The notes under the pieces: model-generated | Database searches by the model: none | The model's input: only the letters and a program-made list of their open reading frames with translations | What the model was told of the DNA's origin: nothing | Shown: positions 2,734-59,852 of the stretch, piece by piece | Position numbering within the stretch: the stretch's first letter is position 1 | Layout of the letters: every line of letters starts with the position of its first letter | Assembly: GCA_028284185.1 (NCBI GenBank) | Contig: JANQSG010000018.1 | Coordinates: 53,642-117,641 of the forward strand | Reading direction: 5' to 3' | From: Kangiella sp. | GTDB lineage: Bacteria; Pseudomonadota; Gammaproteobacteria; Enterobacterales; Kangiellaceae | DNA: 64,000 nucleotides | Made by a program: the position numbers and the translations under genes

Positions 2734-3375
2734 GTGGAGTCACAATTAATCTATCTACGCCAAAGTTTTATCAATAGATGTTCTGAATTAAATATAACTT
2801 TGACAGAAGTAGAAACGGATGCCTTATTGCACTACCTTTCTTTACTGCTCAAGTGGAACAAGGCTTTTAATTTAACCGCCATAACAGATCCCAGAGAGGC
2901 TTTGGATTTACACCTAATAGATTCGGTAGCAATATCGCCTTATATTGAACCATTCAATACTTTGCTGGATGTGGGAACTGGTGGCGGCCTGCCCGGAATT
3001 CCGCTGGCTATTTTAAATCCCGATAAGCAGTTTAGTCTGCTGGATACTAACTCAAAGAAAACCCGTTTTTTAAAACAAACGGTTTATGAGTTGGAATTAA
3101 AAAATGTTGAAGTGGTTAATTCAAGAGTGCAAGACTTTAACCAGGATTCAGGGTATGCTTGCATTCTTTCGCGTGCCTTTGCATCGATTGAGGATATGGT
3201 GGCGTGGACTCAGCACCTGCTGGCGGAACAAGGTCAATGGCTGGCTATGAAAGGAGTTTACCCTATAGAAGAGTTGGCAAAACTGCCAGCCCATATAGTC
3301 TTATCTAATAGTGAAACTATCCAGTTACCCAATCGAAGTGAAGAACGTCATTTAATCTATTTACAAAAACGATAA
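2734..3375 (+). CDS. rsmG: 16S rRNA (guanine527-N7)-methyltransferase RsmG (GidB)
   Basis: LLDVGTGGGLPGIPLAI SAM motif. Conserved position directly after mnmG. GTG start. Confidence 0.92.
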   Translation: MESQLIYLRQSFINRCSELNITLTEVETDALLHYLSLLLKWNKAFNLTAITDPREALDLHLIDSVAISPYIEPFNTLLDVGTGGGLPGIPLAILNPDKQFSLLDTNSKKTRFLKQTVYELELKNVEVVNSRVQDFNQDSGYACILSRAFASIEDMVAWTQHLLAEQGQWLAMKGVYPIEELAKLPAHIVLSNSETIQLPNRSEERHLIYLQKR

Positions 3376-3391
3376 ATCGCACGAGGTTATT

Positions 3392-4159
3392 GTGGCGCGA
3401 GCAAGAGTCATTTCAATTACCAATCAAAAAGGTGGGGTCGGTAAAACCACCACCAGCGTCAATTTGGCAGCATCAATGGCTCAGGAAAACAAAAGAGTCC
3501 TATTGGTTGACCTGGATCCGCAGGGTAATGCCACCATGGGAGTGGGTATCGAGAAAACCGAATTAGAAGTTTCGGTTTACGACGCCTTGATGGATCCCAG
3601 TGAAGCTAAAAGCCATATCACCATTTCAGAAGTTGCTGGTTTTGATGTGTTGCCATCCAATGCGGATTTGACCGCTGCCGAAGTGCACCTTTTGCAATTG
3701 GACGATAAAGAGCGCCGTCTTAAAAAGGTTTTAGCTGAAGTAAGTCATTACTATGATTATGTATTTATCGATTGCCCACCGTCTTTGAATATGCTGACTT
3801 TAAATGCTTTGGTGGCATCTGACTCGGTAATTATTCCGATGCAGTGTGAGTATTATGCACTGGAAGGCCTATCGGCTTTACTTAATACTATTAACCAGGT
3901 GCAGGCACATGTGAATGAAGATCTGGAAATTGAGGGAATTTTGCGTACCATGTATGATCCACGCAATCGCCTGTCGCTGGAAGTATCGCGTCAGTTGTTT
4001 AATCATTTTCCAGATAAGGTTTATCGTACCGTGATCCCAAGAAATGTGCGTTTGGCGGAGGCACCAAGTCATGGAGTTCCGGTATTATTGCACGATAAAC
4101 ACTCTTCCGGTTCGAAAGCCTATATGGCTTTGGCGGGTGAGATTATTCGAAAGCAGTAA
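3392..4159 (+). CDS. parA: chromosome partitioning ATPase ParA (Soj)
   Basis: Deviant Walker A NQKGGVGKTTT, VLLVDLDPQGNAT, and conserved gidB-parA-parB order. Confidence 0.93.
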   Translation: MARARVISITNQKGGVGKTTTSVNLAASMAQENKRVLLVDLDPQGNATMGVGIEKTELEVSVYDALMDPSEAKSHITISEVAGFDVLPSNADLTAAEVHLLQLDDKERRLKKVLAEVSHYYDYVFIDCPPSLNMLTLNALVASDSVIIPMQCEYYALEGLSALLNTINQVQAHVNEDLEIEGILRTMYDPRNRLSLEVSRQLFNHFPDKVYRTVIPRNVRLAEAPSHGVPVLLHDKHSSGSKAYMALAGEIIRKQ

Positions 4160-4179
4160 TTAGGTAAATTTAGCCTGAA

Positions 4180-6709: not shown

Positions 6710-6997
<288 letters not shown>

Positions 6998-7055
6998 TTC
7001 GATAAAGTTTGGCAGGTTTAACTGTAATTTTGACTAACTAACGGAGGGGCGAAAA

Positions 7056-7526
7056 GTGAATATCAACTTTACCCTATTTATTAATATGATTTTCTTTGTG
7101 GGCTTTGTGTGGTTCTGCATGAAGTTCGTATGGCCACCAATTATGGCGGCTATCAAAGAACGTCAAGATAAAATCGCTGAAGGTTTAGCCGCTTCTGAAA
7201 GAAGTGCTAAAGATCTTGAGTTAGCGCAAGCTAAAGCAGCAGATATGTTACGTGATGCGAAAACTCAATCAGCGGAAATCGTAGATTCAGCAAAAAAACG
7301 TCATGCTGAAATCGTTGACTCTGCTAAGGACGATGCTCGTTCTGAAGCAGACAAGATTAAAAATGGCGCTATGGCTGAAATCGACCAAGAAGTTAATCGT
7401 GCACGCGAACAGCTTCGTTCTAAAGTAGCTACTTTAGCGGTGGCTGGTGCAGAGAAAGTGATTGAGCGTAACATTGACGAAGCAGCTAACAACGACTTGT
7501 TCGACAAGTTAGTGAAAGAGCTATAA
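7056..7526 (+). CDS. atpF: F0F1 ATP synthase subunit b
   Basis: N-terminal TM followed by a long charged Ala/Glu/Lys-rich helix; operon position; GTG start. Confidence 0.92.
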
Positions 7527-7535
7527 GGAATTATT

Positions 7536-8072
7536 ATGGCTGAGTTGACGACAATCGCACGACCATACGCTAAAGCAGCATTTGAATATGCGCTAGCTAA
7601 CAGCAATGTTGCTGATTGGGCTGACGCATTAGATTTTGCTGCGCAAGTCGCCAGCAATAAAGAAGTTACAGCTGTGATTAGTAACCCTGCCCTTTCTTCT
7701 GAAGAAAAAGGCAATGTGTTATTGAAAATCGGTGAAGGTAAAGTATCGGATAAAGTAGAAAACTTTATTAAGTTACTAGCCCGTAATCATCGTCTTGAAG
7801 CATTACCTGCCATTAAGCAGCGCTTTGAGGTTTTAAAGGCGGAGTATGAGAAGGCTGCGGAAGTTGAAGTTATCTCAGCCAATCCTTTAAGCGATGAGCA
7901 GCTAGCGCGTCTTAATGAAAAGTTGACGACGAAACTTGGTCGCAAAGTAAATATTGAAACTAGAATCGATGCGTCATTAATCGGCGGTTTGGTTATCCGA
8001 GCTAACGACATGGTGATTGACGGATCGGTACGCGGTAAGCTCGACAAGCTTTCCGAAAGTCTAAGAGCTTAA
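7536..8072 (+). CDS. atpH: F0F1 ATP synthase subunit delta
   Basis: [13 protein letters not shown]-terminus typical of OSCP/delta; operon position. Confidence 0.93.
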
Positions 8073-8086
8073 GTAGAGGAACAGGC

Positions 8087-9634
8087 ATGAGTGTGCAACT
8101 GAATCCATCTGAAATTAGTGAGCTGATTAAAGAGCGCATCGATTCGTTCGAAGTGGTTTCTGAAGCTCGCAACGAAGGTACTATCGTCAGCGTTTCTGAC
8201 GGTATTTTACGTATTCACGGTTTGGCCGACGTAATGGCTGGTGAGATGATTGAATTACCAGGCGGCAAATACGGTATGGCTTTGAACCTGGAGCGTGACT
8301 CTGTTGGTGCGGTAGTGTTAGGTGATTACACCGATATCGTAGAAGGTATGACCGCTAAATGTACTGGCCGTATCTTAGAAGTACCAGTAGGTCGTGGTCT
8401 TTTAGGTCGTGTGGTTGATGCATTGGGTAACCCAATTGATGGTAAAGGTCCCATTGATAACGACGGCTTCTCGCCAATCGAAAAAATCGCGCCAGGCGTT
8501 ATTGAGCGTCAATCAGTAGATCAACCGGTACAAACTGGTATCAAATCTATCGATGCAATGATTCCAGTAGGCCGTGGTCAGCGTGAGTTGATTATTGGTG
8601 ACCGCCAAACTGGTAAAACTGCTATCGCAATTGATGCAATCATCAACCAAAAAGGCACAGGCATTGTTTGTGTTTATGTAGCGGTTGGGCAAAAAGCGTC
8701 AACCATTGCTAACATTGTGCGTAAATTAGAAGAGCACGGCGCTATGGATCACACCATTGTGGTTTCAGCTTCGGCTTCTGATGCGGCGGCATTACAATTT
8801 ATCGCGCCTTTCTCGGGCTGTACCATGGGTGAATACTTCCGTGATCGCGGTGAAGATGGCTTAATCGTTTATGATGACTTGACTAAACAAGCTTGGGCTT
8901 ATCGTCAAATCTCGTTGTTGCTACGTCGTCCACCAGGTCGTGAAGCATATCCAGGTGACGTTTTCTATTTGCACTCACGTCTTTTAGAGCGTGCCTCACG
9001 TGTTAACGCTGACTATGTAGAAAAATTCACTGATGGCACAGTTAAAGGCCAAACTGGTTCTTTGACCGCATTGCCAATCATTGAAACTCAAGCGGGTGAC
9101 GTATCGGCTTTCGTACCAACTAACGTAATTTCGATTACCGATGGTCAGATTTTCCTGGAAACTGACTTATTCAACGCCGGTATCCGCCCTGCGGTTAACG
9201 CTGGTCTTTCGGTATCGCGGGTAGGTGGTGCAGCACAAACCAAGATCGTTAAGAAGCTTGGTGGTGGTGTTCGTTTGGCATTGGCTCAGTATCGTGAATT
9301 GGCGGCTTTCGCTCAGTTTGCATCTGATTTGGATGATGCAACTCGTGCCCAATTAGAGCATGGTCAACGGGTAACCGAATTAATGAAACAGAATCAATAT
9401 GCTCCATTATCGGTTGCTGAAATGGCGGTTTCTTTGTATGCAGCAGAGAAGGGTCATTTACAAGACGTTGAAATCTCTAAAGTTGGTGATTTTGAAGCTG
9501 CTTTGTTGGATTACTTCCGTAACCAACACGGCGATTTGATGAAAGAAGTCAACGACAAGTGTGATTACAACGACGAAGTTGCTGCTAAATTAGAAGAAGC
9601 AGTAACTAAGTTTAAAGCAACACAAACCTGGTAA
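8087..9634 (+). CDS. atpA: F0F1 ATP synthase subunit alpha
   Basis: Walker [10 protein letters not shown], and a conserved stretch from [19 protein letters not shown] onward. Confidence 0.98.
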
Positions 9635-10620: not shown

Positions 10621-12036
<1,416 letters not shown>

Positions 12037-12091
12037 GCAACTCTTGTAAAAGAAGTTGTTCAGATAGATCCCATAAAGGGGATTTATAAAT

Positions 12092-12517
12092 ATGGCTATG
12101 ACAGTACATTTAGACATTGTTAGTGCAGAGAGTGAAATTTTCTCAGGTCGCGTAGAGCGTTTGATTGCTACCGGCGACCTGGGAGAGTTAGGTGTTGAGC
12201 CCGGTCATGCTCCCTTATTAACTTCGTTAAACCCTGGTCCAATTAAAGTAACTATGGCTGGTGGTGAAGAAGAGTTCTTCTACGTATCGGGTGGCATGTT
12301 GGAGGTGCAACCTCATCAAGTAACCGTATTAGCGGATACAGCGGTTCGCGCTGAAGATGTTGATGAAGTAAAGGCCATTGAGGCAGAAAAGCAGGCCCGC
12401 GAAGCTCTAGCCGATCAAAGTTCTGAAATTGAATATTCAAAAGCTGCAGCAGAACTGGCAGCAGCAGTTGCCCAGCTTAGAACCTTGCGTTCTATTAAGA
12501 AAAAAGCTGGTAAGTAA
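12092..12517 (+). CDS. atpC: F0F1 ATP synthase subunit epsilon
   Basis: Last gene of the operon, with a typical LDIVSAE...IFSG N-terminus. Confidence 0.95.
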
Positions 12518-12554
12518 CTGATTTTCAGTGAAAAAGCATGAAAATATTGATTTA

Positions 12555-12580
12555 AGGGTAGCTCTTGCTGCCCTTTTTTA
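12555..12580 (+). terminator. Candidate rho-independent terminator after atpC
   Basis: GGGTAGC-TCTT-GCTGCCC stem (one mismatch) followed by a T6 run. Confidence 0.5.
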
Positions 12581-12616
12581 TTATGGTTTAGGCAGTTTTA
12601 GTAAGGAAATTATTCA

Positions 12617-13993
12617 ATGGGGTTAAGTGTTGTTATTTTAGCTGCTGGTAAAGGTTCCCGGATGAAGTCGAGTATGCCTAAAGTGTTGCATCCGATTGCC
12701 GGCAAGCCGATGTTGCAGCATGTGATTGATGCTGCCAAGCAGTTAGCAGCAGAGCAAATTGTAGTAGTTGCAGGACACGGAATTGATCAAGTTCGAAGCT
12801 ATCTGGTCGCACAAAAGGTAGAGATTGCTGAGCAAGCCCAGCAGTTGGGTACCGGCCATGCGGTAGATCAGGCTTTACCGTTAGTTAATGCCGATAATGA
12901 TGTGTTGGTGCTTTATGGTGATGTGCCATTAATTCAAAAAGAAACTTTGTTTAATTTATGTCAGGAAATTCCAGCCAGCGGTATTAATTTATTAACGGTC
13001 AATTTGGGTAATCCGCAGGGTTATGGCCGCATTATTCGAGATCATAAAGATCAAGTGATGGCAATTGTAGAACAAAAAGATGCGGATCAGGATCAATTAC
13101 TGATTAATGAAGTGAATACCGGAATTTTGGCGGCTAAAGCTTCTGATCTATTAAGCTGGCTAAAAAACATTGATAATAATAATGCGCAAGGCGAATATTA
13201 TTTAACCGACACTATCGCCATGGCTGCTTCAGAAGGTGGTGTAGTGGCTAGTCAGCCAGCATCTGAGATTGAAGTAGAAGGTGTTAACAGTCGAATGCAA
13301 CTGGCTACTTTGGAGCGCACTTACCAGTTGTTACAAGCAGAACAATTGATGGCGCAAGGGGTGACCTTGATCGATCCAAACCGTTTGGATATTCGTGGTG
13401 AACTTGAGTGTGCCCATGATGTCTTAATTGACCTTAATGTGATTATTGAAGGTTTGGTGAAAATCGAAACCGGTGTCCAAATTGATGCTAACGTGATTTT
13501 AAAAGATTGTGTAATAGGACAAAACACTCACATCAAAGCTAATAGTATGGTTGATGGTGCGCTCATCGGCAAAGATTGTCAGGTAGGTCCTTTTGCTCGA
13601 ATTCGCCCGAATACGGAATTAAAGGATGAAGCTTTTATTGGCAATTTTGTGGAAACCAAAAAAACCACACTAGGTAAAGGTAGCAAAGCAAGCCATTTGG
13701 CTTATATCGGCGATGCCTCGGTGGGCGAAAACGTCAATATTGGCGCTGGTGTCATTACCTGTAATTATGATGGTGTTAATAAATTTAAAACCATTGTTGA
13801 GGATGGAGCTTTTATTGGCTCTGACTCACAATTGGTAGCGCCAGTCACCATTGGCAAAATGGCTACGGTTGGTGCTGGCACTACGGTGACCAAAGATGTA
13901 CCTGCCAATAATTTGGTGATTAGTCGGGTTAAGCAAAAGCATCTTAGTGATTGGCAAAGACCTGGCAAAATAAAAACAGAGGAAAAGCAGTAG
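12617..13993 (+). CDS. glmU: bifunctional UDP-N-acetylglucosamine pyrophosphorylase / glucosamine-1-phosphate N-acetyltransferase
   Basis: LAAGKGSRMKS nucleotidyltransferase motif plus C-terminal left-handed beta-helix hexapeptide repeats. Confidence 0.97.
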   Translation: MGLSVVILAAGKGSRMKSSMPKVLHPIAGKPMLQHVIDAAKQLAAEQIVVVAGHGIDQVRSYLVAQKVEIAEQAQQLGTGHAVDQALPLVNADNDVLVLYGDVPLIQKETLFNLCQEIPASGINLLTVNLGNPQGYGRIIRDHKDQVMAIVEQKDADQDQLLINEVNTGILAAKASDLLSWLKNIDNNNAQGEYYLTDTIAMAASEGGVVASQPASEIEVEGVNSRMQLATLERTYQLLQAEQLMAQGVTLIDPNRLDIRGELECAHDVLIDLNVIIEGLVKIETGVQIDANVILKDCVIGQNTHIKANSMVDGALIGKDCQVGPFARIRPNTELKDEAFIGNFVETKKTTLGKGSKASHLAYIGDASVGENVNIGAGVITCNYDGVNKFKTIVEDGAFIGSDSQLVAPVTIGKMATVGAGTTVTKDVPANNLVISRVKQKHLSDWQRPGKIKTEEKQ

Positions 13994-52812: not shown

Positions 52813-53085
52813 ATGAGCAAACTATTTAGATCCGGCTTATTTATGCTGGCCCTTTGGGCACTGGCATTGTCGGCTGTTGCTCACGTTAATGCACCATACC
52901 ACGATTCTGCTGAGTGTACCTTTTGTCTTTATCAGCCCAACACGGATCTGCAAAGCTCGGCTAATGAATTAATCATTGCTGAATTTACCAGTATTTCCGA
53001 ACGGTTTGCAATACGCTCAGTTCCTTTTTATGTTGCTCAACGCATCAGCCCTTTTTTTGGTCGCGCCCCACCATTTTTTACTTAA
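52813..53085 (+). CDS. small exported CxxC protein (DUF2946-like?) upstream of the TonB-dependent receptor
   Basis: Signal peptide MSKLFRSGLFMLALWALALSAVAHV, a CTFC motif, and a C-terminal GRAPP. The family assignment is from memory and tentative. ATG at 52813. Confidence 0.4.
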   Translation: MSKLFRSGLFMLALWALALSAVAHVNAPYHDSAECTFCLYQPNTDLQSSANELIIAEFTSISERFAIRSVPFYVAQRISPFFGRAPPFFT

Positions 53086-53171
53086 TTTCAAATAATACAT
53101 CGTTATAAATTTTATTCATACAGCAGCTCACGGTGGCGGTATGAAATTTGCATATATTAGGAATTTTAAGC

Positions 53172-55529
53172 ATGAACAAAAAATATTTTAAGCAGTCGAT
53201 GGTGACTCTTTTAATGGCTGGTTTATTTACTGGTCCTTTAATGGCTGAAGCCAAGAATTTAACAGGTGTGGTGCTCGATGATAAAGGTGCCCCTATTGCA
53301 AATGCCGAGGTGCATTTACGCGCTTTAAACAAAAAAGTGGTGACTGACGACAATGGCAAATTTACCTTTGAGGCTTTAGATGAAGGACGTTATGTGCTTG
53401 ATATTGAAGCAGCAAAGATTGGTCATATTAATCAATCGGTGCGTCATGATGGTAGCCCGTTAAGCTTAACGGTAACGCATGACAATGCAAAAACTATCGT
53501 GGTTACTGGTAATCCTTTGGAGCATTCCAGTCTGGAAATGGCTTCGCCTGCGGTGGTGATTGCCGGCGATCAACTGGTAAAAAACCGAGGTACTAACATT
53601 GGTGAAACCCTGGCAGAAGTACCTGGAATTAACTTGTCCAGTTTTGGGGTTGGTGCTGGTCGTCCTGTGATCCGTGGTCAACAGGGTAATCGGGTGACAG
53701 TTTTAAGTAATAACACTTCTACTCAGGATGCCTCTAATGCCAGTCCTGATCACTGGATTGCTGCAGAGCCATTGTTGGCCAAACGAATTGAAGTTTTAAA
53801 AGGTCCTGCAACTTTGCTTTATGGTGGTGGTGCGGTCGGTGGTGCGGTTAATGTAGTGGATAATAAAATCCCTACCGAAACACCTGATGGTATTGATGGT
53901 GGTCTTGAGGTGCGACTGGGTGATTCGGCTACTGGTGAGCGTTCAGTTGTCGGCACTTTGACCTCTGCAGTTGAGTTAGATAGCGGTTCCCTTGCTTTTC
54001 ATATTGATGCTTTTGACTCAAAGACTGATCCAATAGAAATTCCGGGTTTTGCTGAGTCTCTGAGATTACGAGAACTGGAAGAAGCTGAAGGTGAAGCCGG
54101 ACATGGTGAAGAAGAGCATGAAGAAGGCTTTGGTGTATTAGAGAATAGCGATACTGACACACAAGGTGGCAATATTGGCTTTTCCTATATTACCGATAAC
54201 GGCTACTGGGGGCTGTCATATACTAAATTTGATCGAAACTATGGTTTACCTGGTCATGCACATGAAGAGGAAGAAGAAATGCATGGAGCTGGAGAGGAGG
54301 AGCACGGAGAAGAGACCATTCGCTTGGATTTAGAACAGAAACGTTGGGATCTTAAAGGCCAATGGAACAATCCTTTTGAGGGTTTTCAAAACTTAAAAAT
54401 GAGCTTTGTCAACACTGATTATCAGCATCAGGAACTTGAAGGAGAGGAAATTGGTACCACTTTTATTAATGATGCCAATGAGTTGCGACTAGAGTTGGTG
54501 CATGAAGCCTGGTCTGGTTGGCAAGGTGCTTTTGGCTTGCAGTATAGCGATGGCGATTTTGCGGCTATCGGTGATGAGGGCTTTATTCCAATGTCTAACA
54601 CCAAGAAGCTTGGTCTTTTCTGGTTGGAAGAAAGGGATTTGGGTAATTGGCATACGGAATTAGGCTTGCGCTTTGACCGTCAAGAGCTTGATGCAGGGTC
54701 TTTTGGTTCACGCGATGATACTGCTTTTAGTTTTGCGGCAGGACTGGTCTGGCATATAGATGGTAATTGGTCATTACCGATGAATTTTGCTCGAGCCCAA
54801 CGTTTGCCACAAGTTGAGGAGCTGTTATCTAATGCTGGTAATAGTGAAGATAACTATGTGCCTCACCTTGCTACTCTAACTATAGATGTCGGTAATCCGA
54901 ATCTGGATAAGGAAACGGCTAATAATCTGGACATAGGTTTACGCTATCATACGGATAATCTGCATGCTTCTGTTGCGGTATTCCATAATCGAGTGAATGA
55001 CTTTATTTATCAGGAGTTGCTGGAAGAAGATCACGCCGCAGATCCAGATCATGAGCATGAATTGCCCATCTTGCAGTTTGCTCAACAAGACGCAGTTTTT
55101 GAAGGTGTTGAAGCTGAAATTGATTGGGTTTTTGCGGAAATGGATAGCGGTTACTGGAAAGCAGGATTATTTGGTGACTATACTCATGCAGAGTTTGATA
55201 ATCCCACTGGTGCTTATATTCCACGTCAACCTGCCAAGCGTTTTGGTGCCTCGTTAGGTTTTGAGCGCGGTGATTTTTCAGCCAATCTTAAAGCAATTAA
55301 AGTAGCCAAACAAGACAAGCTAGCACATGAAGAATTAGCAACGGATGGCTATGATTTACTGAATTTGGATCTTGGTTATAATCTTTATTTTGATAATGCA
55401 GAAGCGTTACTGTTTTTGCGTGGCCAAAATCTGTTAGACGAAGAAATTCGGGATCATGCATCTTTCTTAAAGGATAGAGCGCCTCGTGCCGGTCGTTCTA
55501 TTACCGCCGGTATCCGAGTTCTCTTTTAA
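53172..55529 (+). CDS. TonB-dependent outer-membrane receptor with His/Glu-rich loops (probable metal uptake, ZnuD/OprC-like)
   Basis: Signal peptide. CarboxypepD_reg-like LTGVVLDDKGAPIANAEVHL. TonB-box-like KTIVVTGNP. Plug motifs and a terminal Phe (GIRVLF). Acidic/His loops EEAEGEAGHGEEEHEEG, HAHEEEEEMHGAGEEEHGEE and HAADPDHEHE. Confidence 0.88.
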   Translation: MNKKYFKQSMVTLLMAGLFTGPLMAEAKNLTGVVLDDKGAPIANAEVHLRALNKKVVTDDNGKFTFEALDEGRYVLDIEAAKIGHINQSVRHDGSPLSLTVTHDNAKTIVVTGNPLEHSSLEMASPAVVIAGDQLVKNRGTNIGETLAEVPGINLSSFGVGAGRPVIRGQQGNRVTVLSNNTSTQDASNASPDHWIAAEPLLAKRIEVLKGPATLLYGGGAVGGAVNVVDNKIPTETPDGIDGGLEVRLGDSATGERSVVGTLTSAVELDSGSLAFHIDAFDSKTDPIEIPGFAESLRLRELEEAEGEAGHGEEEHEEGFGVLENSDTDTQGGNIGFSYITDNGYWGLSYTKFDRNYGLPGHAHEEEEEMHGAGEEEHGEETIRLDLEQKRWDLKGQWNNPFEGFQNLKMSFVNTDYQHQELEGEEIGTTFINDANELRLELVHEAWSGWQGAFGLQYSDGDFAAIGDEGFIPMSNTKKLGLFWLEERDLGNWHTELGLRFDRQELDAGSFGSRDDTAFSFAAGLVWHIDGNWSLPMNFARAQRLPQVEELLSNAGNSEDNYVPHLATLTIDVGNPNLDKETANNLDIGLRYHTDNLHASVAVFHNRVNDFIYQELLEEDHAADPDHEHELPILQFAQQDAVFEGVEAEIDWVFAEMDSGYWKAGLFGDYTHAEFDNPTGAYIPRQPAKRFGASLGFERGDFSANLKAIKVAKQDKLAHEELATDGYDLLNLDLGYNLYFDNAEALLFLRGQNLLDEEIRDHASFLKDRAPRAGRSITAGIRVLF

Positions 55530-55551
55530 GACAAAGCGATACTTTGACATT

Positions 55552-55591
55552 AAAAGCTTGTGCGCTATGCTTGGTGCACAAGCTTTTTTTG
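55552..55591 (+). terminator. rho-independent terminator after the TonB-dependent receptor gene
   Basis: AAAAGCTTGTGC-N12-GCACAAGCTTTT followed by a T run. Confidence 0.65.
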
Positions 55592-55602
55592 TTGAGGCTT
55601 TT

Positions 55603-56856
55603 GTGCCGAAAAAAACCTTAAAACTTCCTATTAATATTGTCGCTGCCAAAGGCGGCTATTGTGTGCAAATGGAGATCGGTAGTCAGCAGGTAAAAGTTAA
55701 TTTATTGCTGGATACAGGAAGCAGCACCTTAGCCGTTGAGTGCAAAAAATATAATCCGCAAAAAGATTTTTATTTAAGAAGTACCGTTTTTGCCCAAGCG
55801 ATTATTTATGGTTCCGGTGGCTGGGCCGGCCCATTAGTAAAAACTAATCTACAGTTTGAAACCGAAGAACGTAAAATGACCTTAAAAAAAGGTCGGGTAG
55901 CCATTATTGAAAGTGAACAGCAGGATAATTTTTATGGTGCTGACGGAATTTTGGGTCTGGCTTATCGACAGCTTAATCGAGCCTATAATCTGACCAACTA
56001 TTTTGTAGAAAGAGATTACTATCCTGAAAAAACCTTTCCATGGCCTTTTAAGGTAGAGGAAAATAAAAAAGCAGTAAGAGTCTTTAAGAAATTTTTACGC
56101 AATTATCCTTCAAAGAAACCCTGTGCTTTTTTTACTGAACTGGAAGAACATAAGATCTGTAGAAACAAATTTTCACTCTACTGTAAACGCGCTTTGGTTC
56201 ATGTTGCTGACAATGACTTGACTCAAGAACAATTAGAAGCTGATCCTTTAAATCAAGGCTGGATAATTTTAGGCTCTGGTGAAGAGCATCGGGAATTATA
56301 CGATGGCAGCTTGAAAACCATTGATGTGGTGCACGATGCTTATTACAACACTCAGCTGCTAGCTATGCAGGTTGCTGACGGTGAAAAAATAATCGTACCA
56401 GAAGCAACAAGAAGGGAAAATAAACCGCGTTATTCAAACTCGATTATTGATTGCGGCAGTAGCTTTATTGTATTGCAGGAAGAATTGTATCAAGAGCTAT
56501 TGGATCAATTATTGGAACTCAATATTAACTTTATCAAGCAGATTGATAATTTCCAAAATGCGGGACAAGAGGGTTATTATCCAGACGATCTGGATTTGTC
56601 AGTTTGGCCCGATATTCATTTTTATTTTAAGGGTGAGAATAACAACGATGTCACTAAAGTAAGCTGTACACCGGATAATTATTGGCAACTCAATGCTTTA
56701 AATAAAGGTCGAGCCTGGTTTATGATTATGCCGGAACTCGCCAATATTCCGAATATGTCAATTATGGGATTGCCTTTAATTTCCGATTACTTTGTGATTT
56801 TTGATCGCGAAGAAGATCAAAATGGTGTTATTAAAGTAGGTAAAATTCAACTTTAA
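55603..56856 (+). CDS. pepsin-like (MEROPS A1) aspartic protease, with no obvious signal peptide or propeptide
   Basis: YCVQMEIGSQQVKVNLLLDTGSSTLAV (first DTG), flap YGSGG, and ADGILGLAY (near-invariant in pepsins). Also FSLY, a second site IIDCGSSFIVL, and a C-terminal IMGLPLISDYFVIFDRE. The GTG at 55603 was chosen because upstream in-frame starts lie inside the receptor gene or its terminator; the start remains uncertain. Confidence 0.82.
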   Translation: MPKKTLKLPINIVAAKGGYCVQMEIGSQQVKVNLLLDTGSSTLAVECKKYNPQKDFYLRSTVFAQAIIYGSGGWAGPLVKTNLQFETEERKMTLKKGRVAIIESEQQDNFYGADGILGLAYRQLNRAYNLTNYFVERDYYPEKTFPWPFKVEENKKAVRVFKKFLRNYPSKKPCAFFTELEEHKICRNKFSLYCKRALVHVADNDLTQEQLEADPLNQGWIILGSGEEHRELYDGSLKTIDVVHDAYYNTQLLAMQVADGEKIIVPEATRRENKPRYSNSIIDCGSSFIVLQEELYQELLDQLLELNINFIKQIDNFQNAGQEGYYPDDLDLSVWPDIHFYFKGENNNDVTKVSCTPDNYWQLNALNKGRAWFMIMPELANIPNMSIMGLPLISDYFVIFDREEDQNGVIKVGKIQL

Positions 56857-58374: not shown

Positions 58375-58579
58375 AAGTCTCTGTCTGGTTGCTTGCTAGG
58401 CATAATGGCCAAAGTGTGCCTGATCTAGATCAAAAAAGGTATCATTAATTGCTGGATTTCCAGGATCCAGGCCAATTGGCTATTTAACCGCAGGGTGAAT
58501 GCCGTTATAATGCTTCCGCGTAAGAAGATTCATTGACTTGTGGAAGGCTTTTAACTTTCCCAATATTGAGAGACCGAAG

Positions 58580-59017
58580 ATGAAAACAATTAAATTAATT
58601 GGTATTTTTACCTTGAGCCTAGTGATCGCTGCTTTTGCTGGCGATGCTGCTGCAACCCATTTAAGCAAAAAGAAAGTTGATAGCCGCATCAAGCCTGTTT
58701 ATAAAGTTTATGTTGAAGGTGATAAAGTTCCACAGGTGGCTAATGAATTGCCTAAAGCGGCAAAACCAGCTGGCCCACGCTCAGCTGAAGATATCTACAA
58801 TACCTATTGTACCGCCTGTCATGGTACAGGCGTCGCAGGCGCTCCCAAGTTAGGTGATGCTGCTGCTTGGTCAGAGCATTTAGCTAAAGGTATCGATGCG
58901 GTTTATGCCAATGCCATTAATGGCCTTAATGCTATGCCAGCTAAAGGTACTTGTGCCGATTGTTCTGATGATGAAATCAAACAAGTGGTTGATTATCTTG
59001 TAGAAAACAGCAAGTAA
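58580..59017 (+). CDS. cytochrome c5 family protein
   Basis: Signal anchor, heme site CTACHG, AMPAKGTCADCSDDE and a distal Met. ATG at 58580. Confidence 0.8.
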   Translation: MKTIKLIGIFTLSLVIAAFAGDAAATHLSKKKVDSRIKPVYKVYVEGDKVPQVANELPKAAKPAGPRSAEDIYNTYCTACHGTGVAGAPKLGDAAAWSEHLAKGIDAVYANAINGLNAMPAKGTCADCSDDEIKQVVDYLVENSK

Positions 59018-59030
59018 TTATTAAATAATT

Positions 59031-59069
59031 AAAGCCGATGCTGTTATAGTGACCGCATCGGCTTTTTTA
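59031..59069 (+). terminator. rho-independent terminator
   Basis: AAAGCCGATGC-N13-GCATCGGCTTT followed by TTT. Confidence 0.7.
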
Positions 59070-59079
59070 TGTTTGAAAT

Positions 59080-59538
59080 ATGGAATTAAGAGAAGCAAAT
59101 AAGGCAGATTGTTTATTATTAATGAGTTGGTTTGAAGATAAAGCTGCTCTTCAGATCTGGTCAGGGCCTAATGTTCGATATCCATTGAACCAAGAATCTT
59201 TCACAGAAGATATTCAGCTTGCCAAGTTAGATTCTTATATTCTTGAAGATGAAGATAACAATTTAGTGGCTTTCGGCCAATTTTACGAGCGTTTGGGGCG
59301 TTGCCATTTAGGACGTTTAGTGGTCAATCCAATTTATCGACGTCAGGGTTTTGGAGAGTTGCTTATTAAAAAGCTTGGTCAGAAAGGACAAAGTACTTTA
59401 GGACTGAAGGGATTGTCTTTATTTGTGCTGAAAACTAATAAAGTAGCATTGGCTTTATACCGAAAGATGGATTTTGAAATTACCGATTACCCAGAACCGT
59501 TGGCAATTGATGGTTGTTTATATTTGATAAAGGTTTAA
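59080..59538 (+). CDS. GNAT family N-acetyltransferase
   Basis: The RLVVNPIYRRQGFGELLI acetyl-CoA binding pattern (Q/RxxGxG/A), 152 aa. Confidence 0.7.
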   Translation: MELREANKADCLLLMSWFEDKAALQIWSGPNVRYPLNQESFTEDIQLAKLDSYILEDEDNNLVAFGQFYERLGRCHLGRLVVNPIYRRQGFGELLIKKLGQKGQSTLGLKGLSLFVLKTNKVALALYRKMDFEITDYPEPLAIDGCLYLIKV

Positions 59539-59540
59539 AT

Positions 59541-59852
59541 ATGAAAAGGGCTCTACTCGTTGTTTTGTTATCTGGGGCTTTGGTTGCTTGTAATCAGACG
59601 CCGCAAGAACGTGATGGCGAGACGATATACAACCAATCTTGTTTTAGTTGTCATGAGCGCGGTCACGGCGGCGCGCCTGTTCGTGGCGATCTGGAAGAGT
59701 GGCAGCCGCGTTTAGCCAAAGGAAAGGATGTTCTGCTGAAAAACCTGAAAGAGGGTTATAACGGCATGCCACCAAAAGGAGCCTGTTTTGATTGCAATGA
59801 TCAAGAATTACAAAAAGTGTTAGCCTTTATACTGGACCCCAATAATCAATAA
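59541..59852 (+). CDS. c-type cytochrome (c5-like) lipoprotein
   Basis: Lipobox LVAC, heme site CFSCHE, and GMPPKGACFDCNDQE parallel to the first cytochrome. ATG at 59541. Confidence 0.75.
   Translation: MKRALLVVLLSGALVACNQTPQERDGETIYNQSCFSCHERGHGGAPVRGDLEEWQPRLAKGKDVLLKNLKEGYNGMPPKGACFDCNDQELQKVLAFILDPNNQ

Follow-up and report, generated by a model that had tools for sequence, protein, structure and literature searches.

The gene analyzed here lies in a 64-kb stretch of a Kangiella contig (hereafter the window) and encodes a homologue of the family A1, or pepsin-like, aspartic peptidases (Table 1). It stands between the transcription unit of a ZnuD-like TonB-dependent receptor and a gene for an EamA transporter. 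A sequence-only reading of the same DNA had proposed that the product is a bacterial family A1 homologue whose second catalytic triplet is Asp-Cys-Gly (D-C-G) instead of Asp-Thr/Ser-Gly. Both proposals were borne out. The translation matched the Pfam family PF00026 (eukaryotic aspartyl protease) with E = 3.2e-16 and a score of 60.1 bits, above the gathering score of 19.9, and the top phmmer match among the sequences of the Protein Data Bank (PDB) was BACE1 (E = 2e-12), in an alignment that included both lobes. Weak matches to the Pfam families TAXi_N and TAXi_C overlapped the PF00026 match and had lower scores.

Structure prediction gave the same result. An AlphaFold2 model, for which the input was an alignment with 37 homologues, had a predicted local distance difference test score (pLDDT) of 90.3 and a predicted template modeling score of 0.90, with the pLDDT being about 93 around residues 281–290. 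At E ≤ 0.001, Foldseek identified 553 PDB matches, of which the 50 listed were all BACE1 (best E = 3.6e-23, template modeling scores 0.69–0.74). By both homology and fold, the peptidase is a bilobal, pepsin-fold member of family A1.

The hallmarks of an active A1 enzyme are D32[TS]G, Tyr75, hydrophobic-hydrophobic-Gly122, D215[TS]G and hydrophobic-hydrophobic-Gly302 (PMC4079213). The Kangiella peptidase has D32[TS]G, the flap tyrosine and both hydrophobic-hydrophobic-Gly motifs, and the one hallmark of the five that failed was D215[TS]G, in which the Asp and Gly are present and the middle residue is a cysteine, C284. The alignment with BACE1 paired LLLDTGSS with ILVDTGSS, Y69 with the flap tyrosine, and IIDCGSS with IVDSGTT, which places D-C-G in the second catalytic loop. 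All of the motifs listed in the sequence-only reading, including FSLY, were found in the translation. In the alignment of 37 homologues D37, G39, S40, Y69, G118, D283, G285 and G389 were invariant, as were the two residues immediately after G389, L390 (at the position of pepsin Asp303, where the shewasins of Shewanella also have Leu) and P391, and T38 was nearly so. The flap tyrosine was present in 105 of 110 representatives.

Table 1. Positions in the window of the peptidase gene, its catalytic elements and the features upstream of it.
Feature	Position	Strand	Remarks
Family A1 (pepsin-like) peptidase homologue, coding sequence, 417 aa	55603..56856	+	GTG start, TAA stop; open reading frame, PF00026, BACE1, AlphaFold2, Foldseek, orthologue starts
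First catalytic triplet D37-T38-G39 (pepsin D32-T33-G34)	55711..55719	+	In LLLDTGSS; D37 at 55711-55713; aligned to BACE1 DTG
Flap tyrosine Y69 (pepsin Tyr75)	55807..55809	+	In IIYGSGG; aligned to BACE1 flap Tyr; invariant column
First psi-loop hydrophobic-hydrophobic-Gly, I116-L117-G118	55948..55956	+	In ADGILGLAY; G118 (55954-55956) invariant
Second catalytic triplet D283-C284-G285 (pepsin D215-T216-G217)	56449..56457	+	In IIDCGSS; codons GAT TGC GGC; Cys for Thr/Ser
Second psi-loop hydrophobic-hydrophobic-Gly, I387-M388-G389	56761..56769	+	In IMGLP...YFVIFDRE; G389 (56767-56769) invariant
Putative Shine-Dalgarno sequence, GAGG	55594..55597	+	5 nt before GTG 55603; read from sequence
Intrinsic terminator (predicted)	55552..55593	+	16-bp stem 55552-55587, T-run 55584-55590; ends receptor transcription unit, directly before peptidase gene
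Promoter-like TTGACA-16-TATGCT	55544..55571	+	-10 in terminator loop; consensus match only, 10/12; regional count no higher than in shuffled sequence
TonB-dependent receptor, ZnuD-like, His/Glu-rich loops	53172..55529	+	Plug and beta-barrel domains, NF038289; start as called in L081
90-aa secreted protein, weak DUF2946 match	52813..53085	+	PF11162 E = 0.0049, below cut-off; conserved in 9 clade loci

The start of the gene is supported at GTG 55603, because the GAGG sequence is 5 nt upstream, the terminator is just before it, and an ATG was found at the aligned position in all 11 orthologues, the N-termini of which read MP(K/R/S)(K/D)T. In K. aquimarina, the reading frame of the peptidase has no possible upstream extension. 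Since the conserved fold starts at residue 5–6 in both the alignment and the model, the protein is predicted to have no room for a signal peptide or propeptide, in agreement with the sequence-only reading. Two longer candidates for the gene were rejected. The longest open reading frame (GTG 55486) runs through the 3' end of the receptor gene and the terminator hairpin, and the orthologues are not extendable upstream, while the automatic gene call (P0001, 55567–56856, 429 aa) has its start, ATG 55567, inside the terminator hairpin and is probably too long. The annotation of starts in the clade is inconsistent, with RefSeq Kangiella orthologues carrying two different ones (413 and 418 aa). The gene is slightly AT-richer than its neighbors (GC 0.36–0.39 versus 0.41–0.45), a difference that we considered and rejected as a clear sign of horizontal transfer.

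To determine how widely the D-C-G triplet occurs, we searched a protein database with the peptidase and read the second triplet in the best 120 of the relatives among 796 matches. D-C-G was identified in exactly the 12 closest relatives (59–100% identity), all of which were from Kangiella or Kangiellaceae, and the other 108 had DTG or DSG. The clade represents 11 species-level genomes, with the cysteine present in all 11 orthologous loci, and its members include proteins of the cultured species K. koreensis, K. aquimarina and K. profundi, which carry the NCBI name "pepsin-like aspartic protease". The codon for the cysteine was TGC in four members and TGT in eight, and the pairwise ratio of non-synonymous to synonymous substitution rates (dN/dS) within the clade was 0.03–0.08 for those pairs in which dS was unsaturated. 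C284 is a real residue and not a sequence error, because all 12 closest relatives have D-C-G, both cysteine codons are used, and dN/dS is so low. The D-C-G triplet is under strong purifying selection in the clade.

Neighbor-joining analyses recovered the Kangiella clade as monophyletic in 40 of 40 bootstraps, nested among the bacterial A1 homologues, and with a set of Marinicella, Alcanivoracaceae and Lysobacterales proteins that have D-S-G-(S/C)-S as its sister group (36 of 40 bootstraps). The serine codons of the sister group are of the TCN type, and a single C-to-G change (TCY to TGY) would therefore suffice to produce the cysteine, which is probably derived from an ancestral serine. Besides C284, the clade has only five internal sites with a conserved residue that is not the one predominating in the other homologues. 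The remaining cysteines of the clade vary, and there was no second conserved cysteine in the motifs that pack against C284.

A cysteine was also frequently seen two residues after that position in other bacterial A1 homologues, at the position of pepsin Thr218, a residue credited with tuning the pH optimum. The resulting D-S/T-G-C-S motif was found in P0034, P0043, P0048, P0051, P0057 and others (loci including L019, L021, L043, L045, L048 and L052), and one member of the Kangiella clade has D-C-G-C-S. As D-S/T-G-C-S is common, thiols near the active site are unremarkable in the bacterial family.

The bacterial branch of family A1 has grown considerably. Its homologues were known from seven genomes in 2009 (PMC2761423), and the view in the sequence-only reading that only a few bacterial homologues have been described is outdated, as relatives of the Kangiella peptidase were identified in at least 212 bacterial species-representative genomes, including those of Shewanella, Colwellia, Marinicella, Lysobacterales, Bacteroidota, Acidobacteriota, Planctomycetota and Actinomycetota. 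In 43–45 of the 79 loci that we fetched, the A1 peptidase gene was accompanied by genes for a GNAT acetyltransferase, a TP_methylase-type methyltransferase, a precursor peptide and a large sensor or GGDEF protein. The methyltransferases are 45–67% identical across genera, and the precursors, approximately 85–100 residues long, end in an acidic stretch that follows a C(I/L/M)(L/F)xPAEDE-like site. These multi-gene loci are the borosin cluster, in which shewasin A (SamP) cuts the alpha-N-methylated precursor SamA1 between Phe53 and Pro54 (bioRxiv 10.1101/2024.01.09.574750). This role of shewasin A as a borosin leader peptidase is now known and was absent from the sequence-only reading. The same study surveyed 441 peptidases and assigned 267 to clusters, 56 to organisms with a cluster elsewhere and 34 to bacteria without a borosin association.

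Several features of these loci were observed in passing. A gene for a GGDEF or large sensor protein was nearly always part of the borosin clusters with an A1 peptidase (45 loci among L012–L079 and L080; e.g., L046 6983–11762 and L080 8001–12922). Their precursors have in common the N-terminal sequence MSN(V/I)IxLLExxG and a junction of the form C-x-x-x-P-A-E-D-E. In Shewanella waksmanii (L014), genes for an A1 peptidase and for a borosin methyltransferase are each present twice in one 15-kb stretch (899–2575, 3345–4166, 7001–8356 and 12011–12802). Within the D-S-G sister group of the Kangiella clade, some members have an adjacent GNAT and methyltransferase gene, and some of the Marinicella loci (L013, L038, L043, L045, L048 and L052) have no adjacent methyltransferase, GNAT or precursor gene. 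As part of the sister group is likewise detached, the detachment of the peptidase gene from the cluster is not unique to Kangiella.

A second D-C-G lineage was identified in a scan of 1.84 billion representative proteins, which found 294 related clusters at 50% identity, with 115 of the 150 that were listed covering the second triplet. The triplet in these 115 was DSG in 82, DTG in 30, and DCG, DFG and DTA in one each. The DCG cluster was that of Corallincola holothuriorum (WP_114336791.1), and four Corallincola species in all share NSIFDCGSS, the only further natural D-C-G among the A1 relatives examined. In C. holothuriorum, the peptidase gene is found with those for a PF13302 GNAT, a TP_methylase, an 86-residue acidic precursor and a GGDEF protein, and these together constitute a complete borosin cluster. 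The Corallincola and Kangiella-clade peptidases are 41–44% identical, and their joint monophyly was recovered in just four of 40 neighbor-joining bootstraps, so that D-C-G may have arisen either once or twice. We considered the EamA genes adjacent to the peptidase genes as a sign of common locus ancestry and rejected this, as the two EamA proteins are unrelated.

Based on these data, we consider that the Kangiella peptidase is probably an active, cytoplasmic, stand-alone endopeptidase of the SamP type that has a thiol in place of a structural hydroxyl. The conservation of the cysteine with synonymous codon turnover, the purifying selection, the otherwise intact hallmarks and the Corallincola cluster all point to a functional D-C-G. 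Catalysis would follow the ordinary two-aspartate route, in which the nucleophilic water is held by the pair D37 and D283, and the flap over the cleft carries Y69. In pepsin, the hydroxyl of Thr216, a position that is normally buried, forms an inter-lobe hydrogen-bond network with Thr33 known as the "fireman's grip". We take C284 to occupy the Thr216 position, in which case its side chain would be in this network and not in the substrate-facing cleft, with the thiol having taken over from the hydroxyl of the ancestral serine. The covalent link between the two lobes and the intact Thr38 in the first lobe would allow the replacement to be tolerated. The suggestion in the sequence-only reading that the cysteine could alter activity or confer redox sensitivity found no support; the grip position, the intact first-lobe threonine, the purifying selection and the presence of D-C-G in an intact Corallincola cluster argue for a tolerated replacement rather than a switch. 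Unlike those of most of its relatives, the Kangiella gene stands alone, outside of any borosin cluster. By analogy with the shewasins, the enzyme probably acts on a specific protein or peptide in which the P1 and P2 residues are bulky and hydrophobic.

The closest characterized relatives of the Kangiella enzyme are shewasin A (Sama_0787) and shewasin D (Sden_0804), both from its own bacterial A1 lineage; identity between the window protein and Shewanella homologues is 36–41%. Like the shewasins, it has no predicted signal peptide or propeptide, D-T-G in the first lobe, the flap tyrosine, both psi-loops and the Leu in place of Asp303, a replacement reported for the Shewanella and Colwellia homologues (PMC2761423). 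Shewasin D is cytoplasmic and pepstatin-sensitive (PMC4814920). The two differ in the second lobe, which has D-T-G-A-S in the shewasins and D-C-G-S-S in the Kangiella enzyme, and in their gene contexts, as the shewasins are in borosin clusters, with SamP requiring a leader that is alpha-N-methylated (bioRxiv 10.1101/2024.01.09.574750), and the Kangiella gene is without such neighbors. The Corallincola enzymes, which are annotated and uncharacterized, are like that of Kangiella in their D-C-G but unlike it in being encoded inside a complete borosin cluster. The closest solved structure, human BACE1 (memapsin 2), has the same bilobal pepsin fold, with catalytic loops and a flap that align residue by residue, but it is only about 20% identical to the Kangiella enzyme and is a membrane-anchored zymogen of the secretory pathway with disulfides and a D-S-G in its second lobe. 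The HIV-1 protease provides a precedent for a cysteine at the grip position, as the T26C mutant reportedly retained close to wild-type activity in work by Strisovsky and colleagues from 2000, in which T26A is said to have lost activity and linked single-chain dimers to have tolerated grip mutations. However, that enzyme is a homodimer of family A2 and the substitution was a laboratory mutation. The fireman's grip has been described for retropepsins (PMC7072860).

Several points weigh against an active, SamP-type enzyme. The standard filters of family surveys discard A1 homologues without D215[TS]G as non-functional (PMC4079213), and our search of the literature on D-C-G found nothing beyond one retrotransposon paper, in which a DCG protease was regarded as inactivated (PMC554778); we infer the activity of any D-C-G enzyme of family A1 from comparative evidence. 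The placement of the C284 thiol comes similarly from knowledge of the family and not from the geometry of the model. The residue at the pepsin Thr218 position is Ser286 and not the Ala of the shewasins (PMC2761423, PMC4814920), and the pH behavior of the Kangiella enzyme may consequently differ from theirs. Lastly, tblastn searches with proteins from the other loci identified no homologues of the borosin methyltransferase (PF00590), the PF13302 GNAT or the acidic BBD-type precursor in the window, and none were found in the 11 orthologous loci of 8–15 kb (L001–L011).

The last of these points is relevant also to the possibility that the peptidase is a SamP-like borosin maturation protease working in trans, its alpha-N-methylated precursor being the product of a gene at some other place in the Kangiella genome. 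The peptidase is paired with a methyltransferase, GNAT and precursor in over half of the loci fetched, and 56 of the surveyed peptidases have their gene apart from the borosin cluster of their organism (bioRxiv 10.1101/2024.01.09.574750). In addition, the Corallincola D-C-G enzyme is encoded inside a borosin cluster, and few residues separate the Kangiella clade from the cluster-linked enzymes. We nevertheless think it unlikely that the Kangiella enzyme matures a borosin, given the absence of all three partner genes from the window and the orthologous loci. A hidden Markov model of the precursor had no match in the window or in L001–L011, nor did a regular expression for the cleavage site, although the latter was so strict that even the Corallincola control fell outside it. 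A methyltransferase profile from Kangiellaceae and Marinicella had at least 7,992 matches, and the best 120 included Aliikangiella and Pleionea but no named Kangiella and no known Kangiella chromosome, which is a weak argument in the same direction. No literature was found that links Kangiella with borosins or pepsins.

An alternative view of the cysteine is that the change from serine weakened the catalytic center, and that the protein is a pseudo-protease with a binding or regulatory role like those of TAXI-I and the pregnancy-associated glycoproteins, which are inactive A1 homologues. The mandatory status of D215[TS]G in family surveys and the reading of DCG as inactivating in the retroelement protease are both in keeping with this, and a weak TAXi_N/TAXi_C signal is present, but the latter overlaps the stronger PF00026 match. 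We regard a pseudo-protease as improbable, since inactive homologues usually decay at several of the hallmarks, whereas all of those other than D215[TS]G are invariant here, and dN/dS is low. The retention of D-C-G in the intact biosynthetic cluster of Corallincola is also hard to reconcile with a dead enzyme, and the reported activity of the HIV-1 protease T26C mutant likewise speaks against one.

A further and decidedly doubtful possibility is that the Kangiella D-C-G enzymes are former leader peptidases of RiPPs (peptides made by ribosomes and modified after translation), freed from borosin biosynthesis for a new cytoplasmic task, in which the grip thiol would be a functional adaptation for inter-lobe stability, for the pKa of Asp283, or for metal or redox sensing with the ZnuD-like unit. 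If this were true, a functional Asp-Cys-Gly center would for the first time be known from natural aspartic proteases.

For the stand-alone, active endopeptidase that we favor, much was already known, as the family, fold, absence of leader sequences and general chemistry are established and the Kangiella proteins were already annotated, and the practical stakes are modest. What appears to be new is that one or two lineages of family A1 naturally conserve an Asp-Cys-Gly center, and that a clade of bacterial pepsins is without borosin genes in the flanking DNA examined. The presence of Asp-Thr/Ser-Gly decides, yes or no, whether an enzyme of the pepsin family is counted as functional, a filter that would be too strict if the D-C-G enzymes are active. 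They would then also represent a natural version of the fireman's grip experiment, of which mutagenesis of the HIV protease has been the only example so far. The Kangiella enzymes provide a handle on the role of the rare bacterial pepsin family outside of RiPP maturation.

The sequence-only reading had also noted a metal receptor gene upstream of the peptidase gene, and this was upheld. The receptor matched the ZnuD model NF038289 over its full length (E = 1.2e-138), but its score of 463.7 bits was below the cut-off of 950, and the protein is best described as ZnuD-like and not as ZnuD by that cut-off. It has a carboxypeptidase-regulatory-like N-terminal domain and two His/Glu-rich loops, HGEEEHEEG and HAHEEEEEMHGAGEEEHGEE. 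The 90-residue secreted protein encoded before it has a conserved H-D-S-A-E-C-x-x-C motif, and the region 52813–55529 looks like a metal-uptake module.

All 11 orthologous loci have a hairpin or terminator before the peptidase gene, with stems that differ in sequence yet remain complementary, and the terminator loop keeps TAT(G/T)CT in L001–L005 (at about 6930–7000) despite the differing stems. The distance from the T-run to the start codon is only about 12–15 nt, and expression of the peptidase would therefore rely either on read-through or on a promoter within the terminator itself. The gene order common to all loci of the Kangiella clade is ThrE exporter, DUF2946-like protein, ZnuD-like receptor, A1 peptidase, EamA transporter, thioesterase and cytochromes c. 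In the K. aquimarina group, a gene for a DUF2165 membrane protein is located between the receptor and peptidase genes, and a CitMHS/TrkA-C transporter gene is downstream. A search of the window for a Zur box, allowing up to three mismatches to an E. coli-type consensus that is not specific to Kangiella, had no matches. The adjacency of receptor and peptidase is clade-level synteny with a terminator between the genes and no evidence of a functional link, as the terminator is in every locus, the DUF2165 gene intervenes in the K. aquimarina group, and there is no Zur box.

It is very unlikely, for these reasons, that C284 is a regulatory thiol at which oxidation or the binding of Zn or Cu switches the protease, with its expression coupled to the metal-uptake unit by read-through, for although the peptidase gene starts 15 nt after the terminator of that unit in the window and the closest relatives, the order of receptor then peptidase is kept across the clade and the cysteine is strictly conserved, Corallincola has D-C-G without such a receptor neighbor, position 216 is normally buried, C284 has no conserved partner cysteine, and the cytoplasm is reducing.

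Scans with Rfam and for tRNAs identified no RNA genes in the window. Downstream of the thioesterase gene, at 58538–59852, two small c-type cytochrome genes flank a gene for a GNAT acetyltransferase, in an order that is kept in the Kangiella loci.

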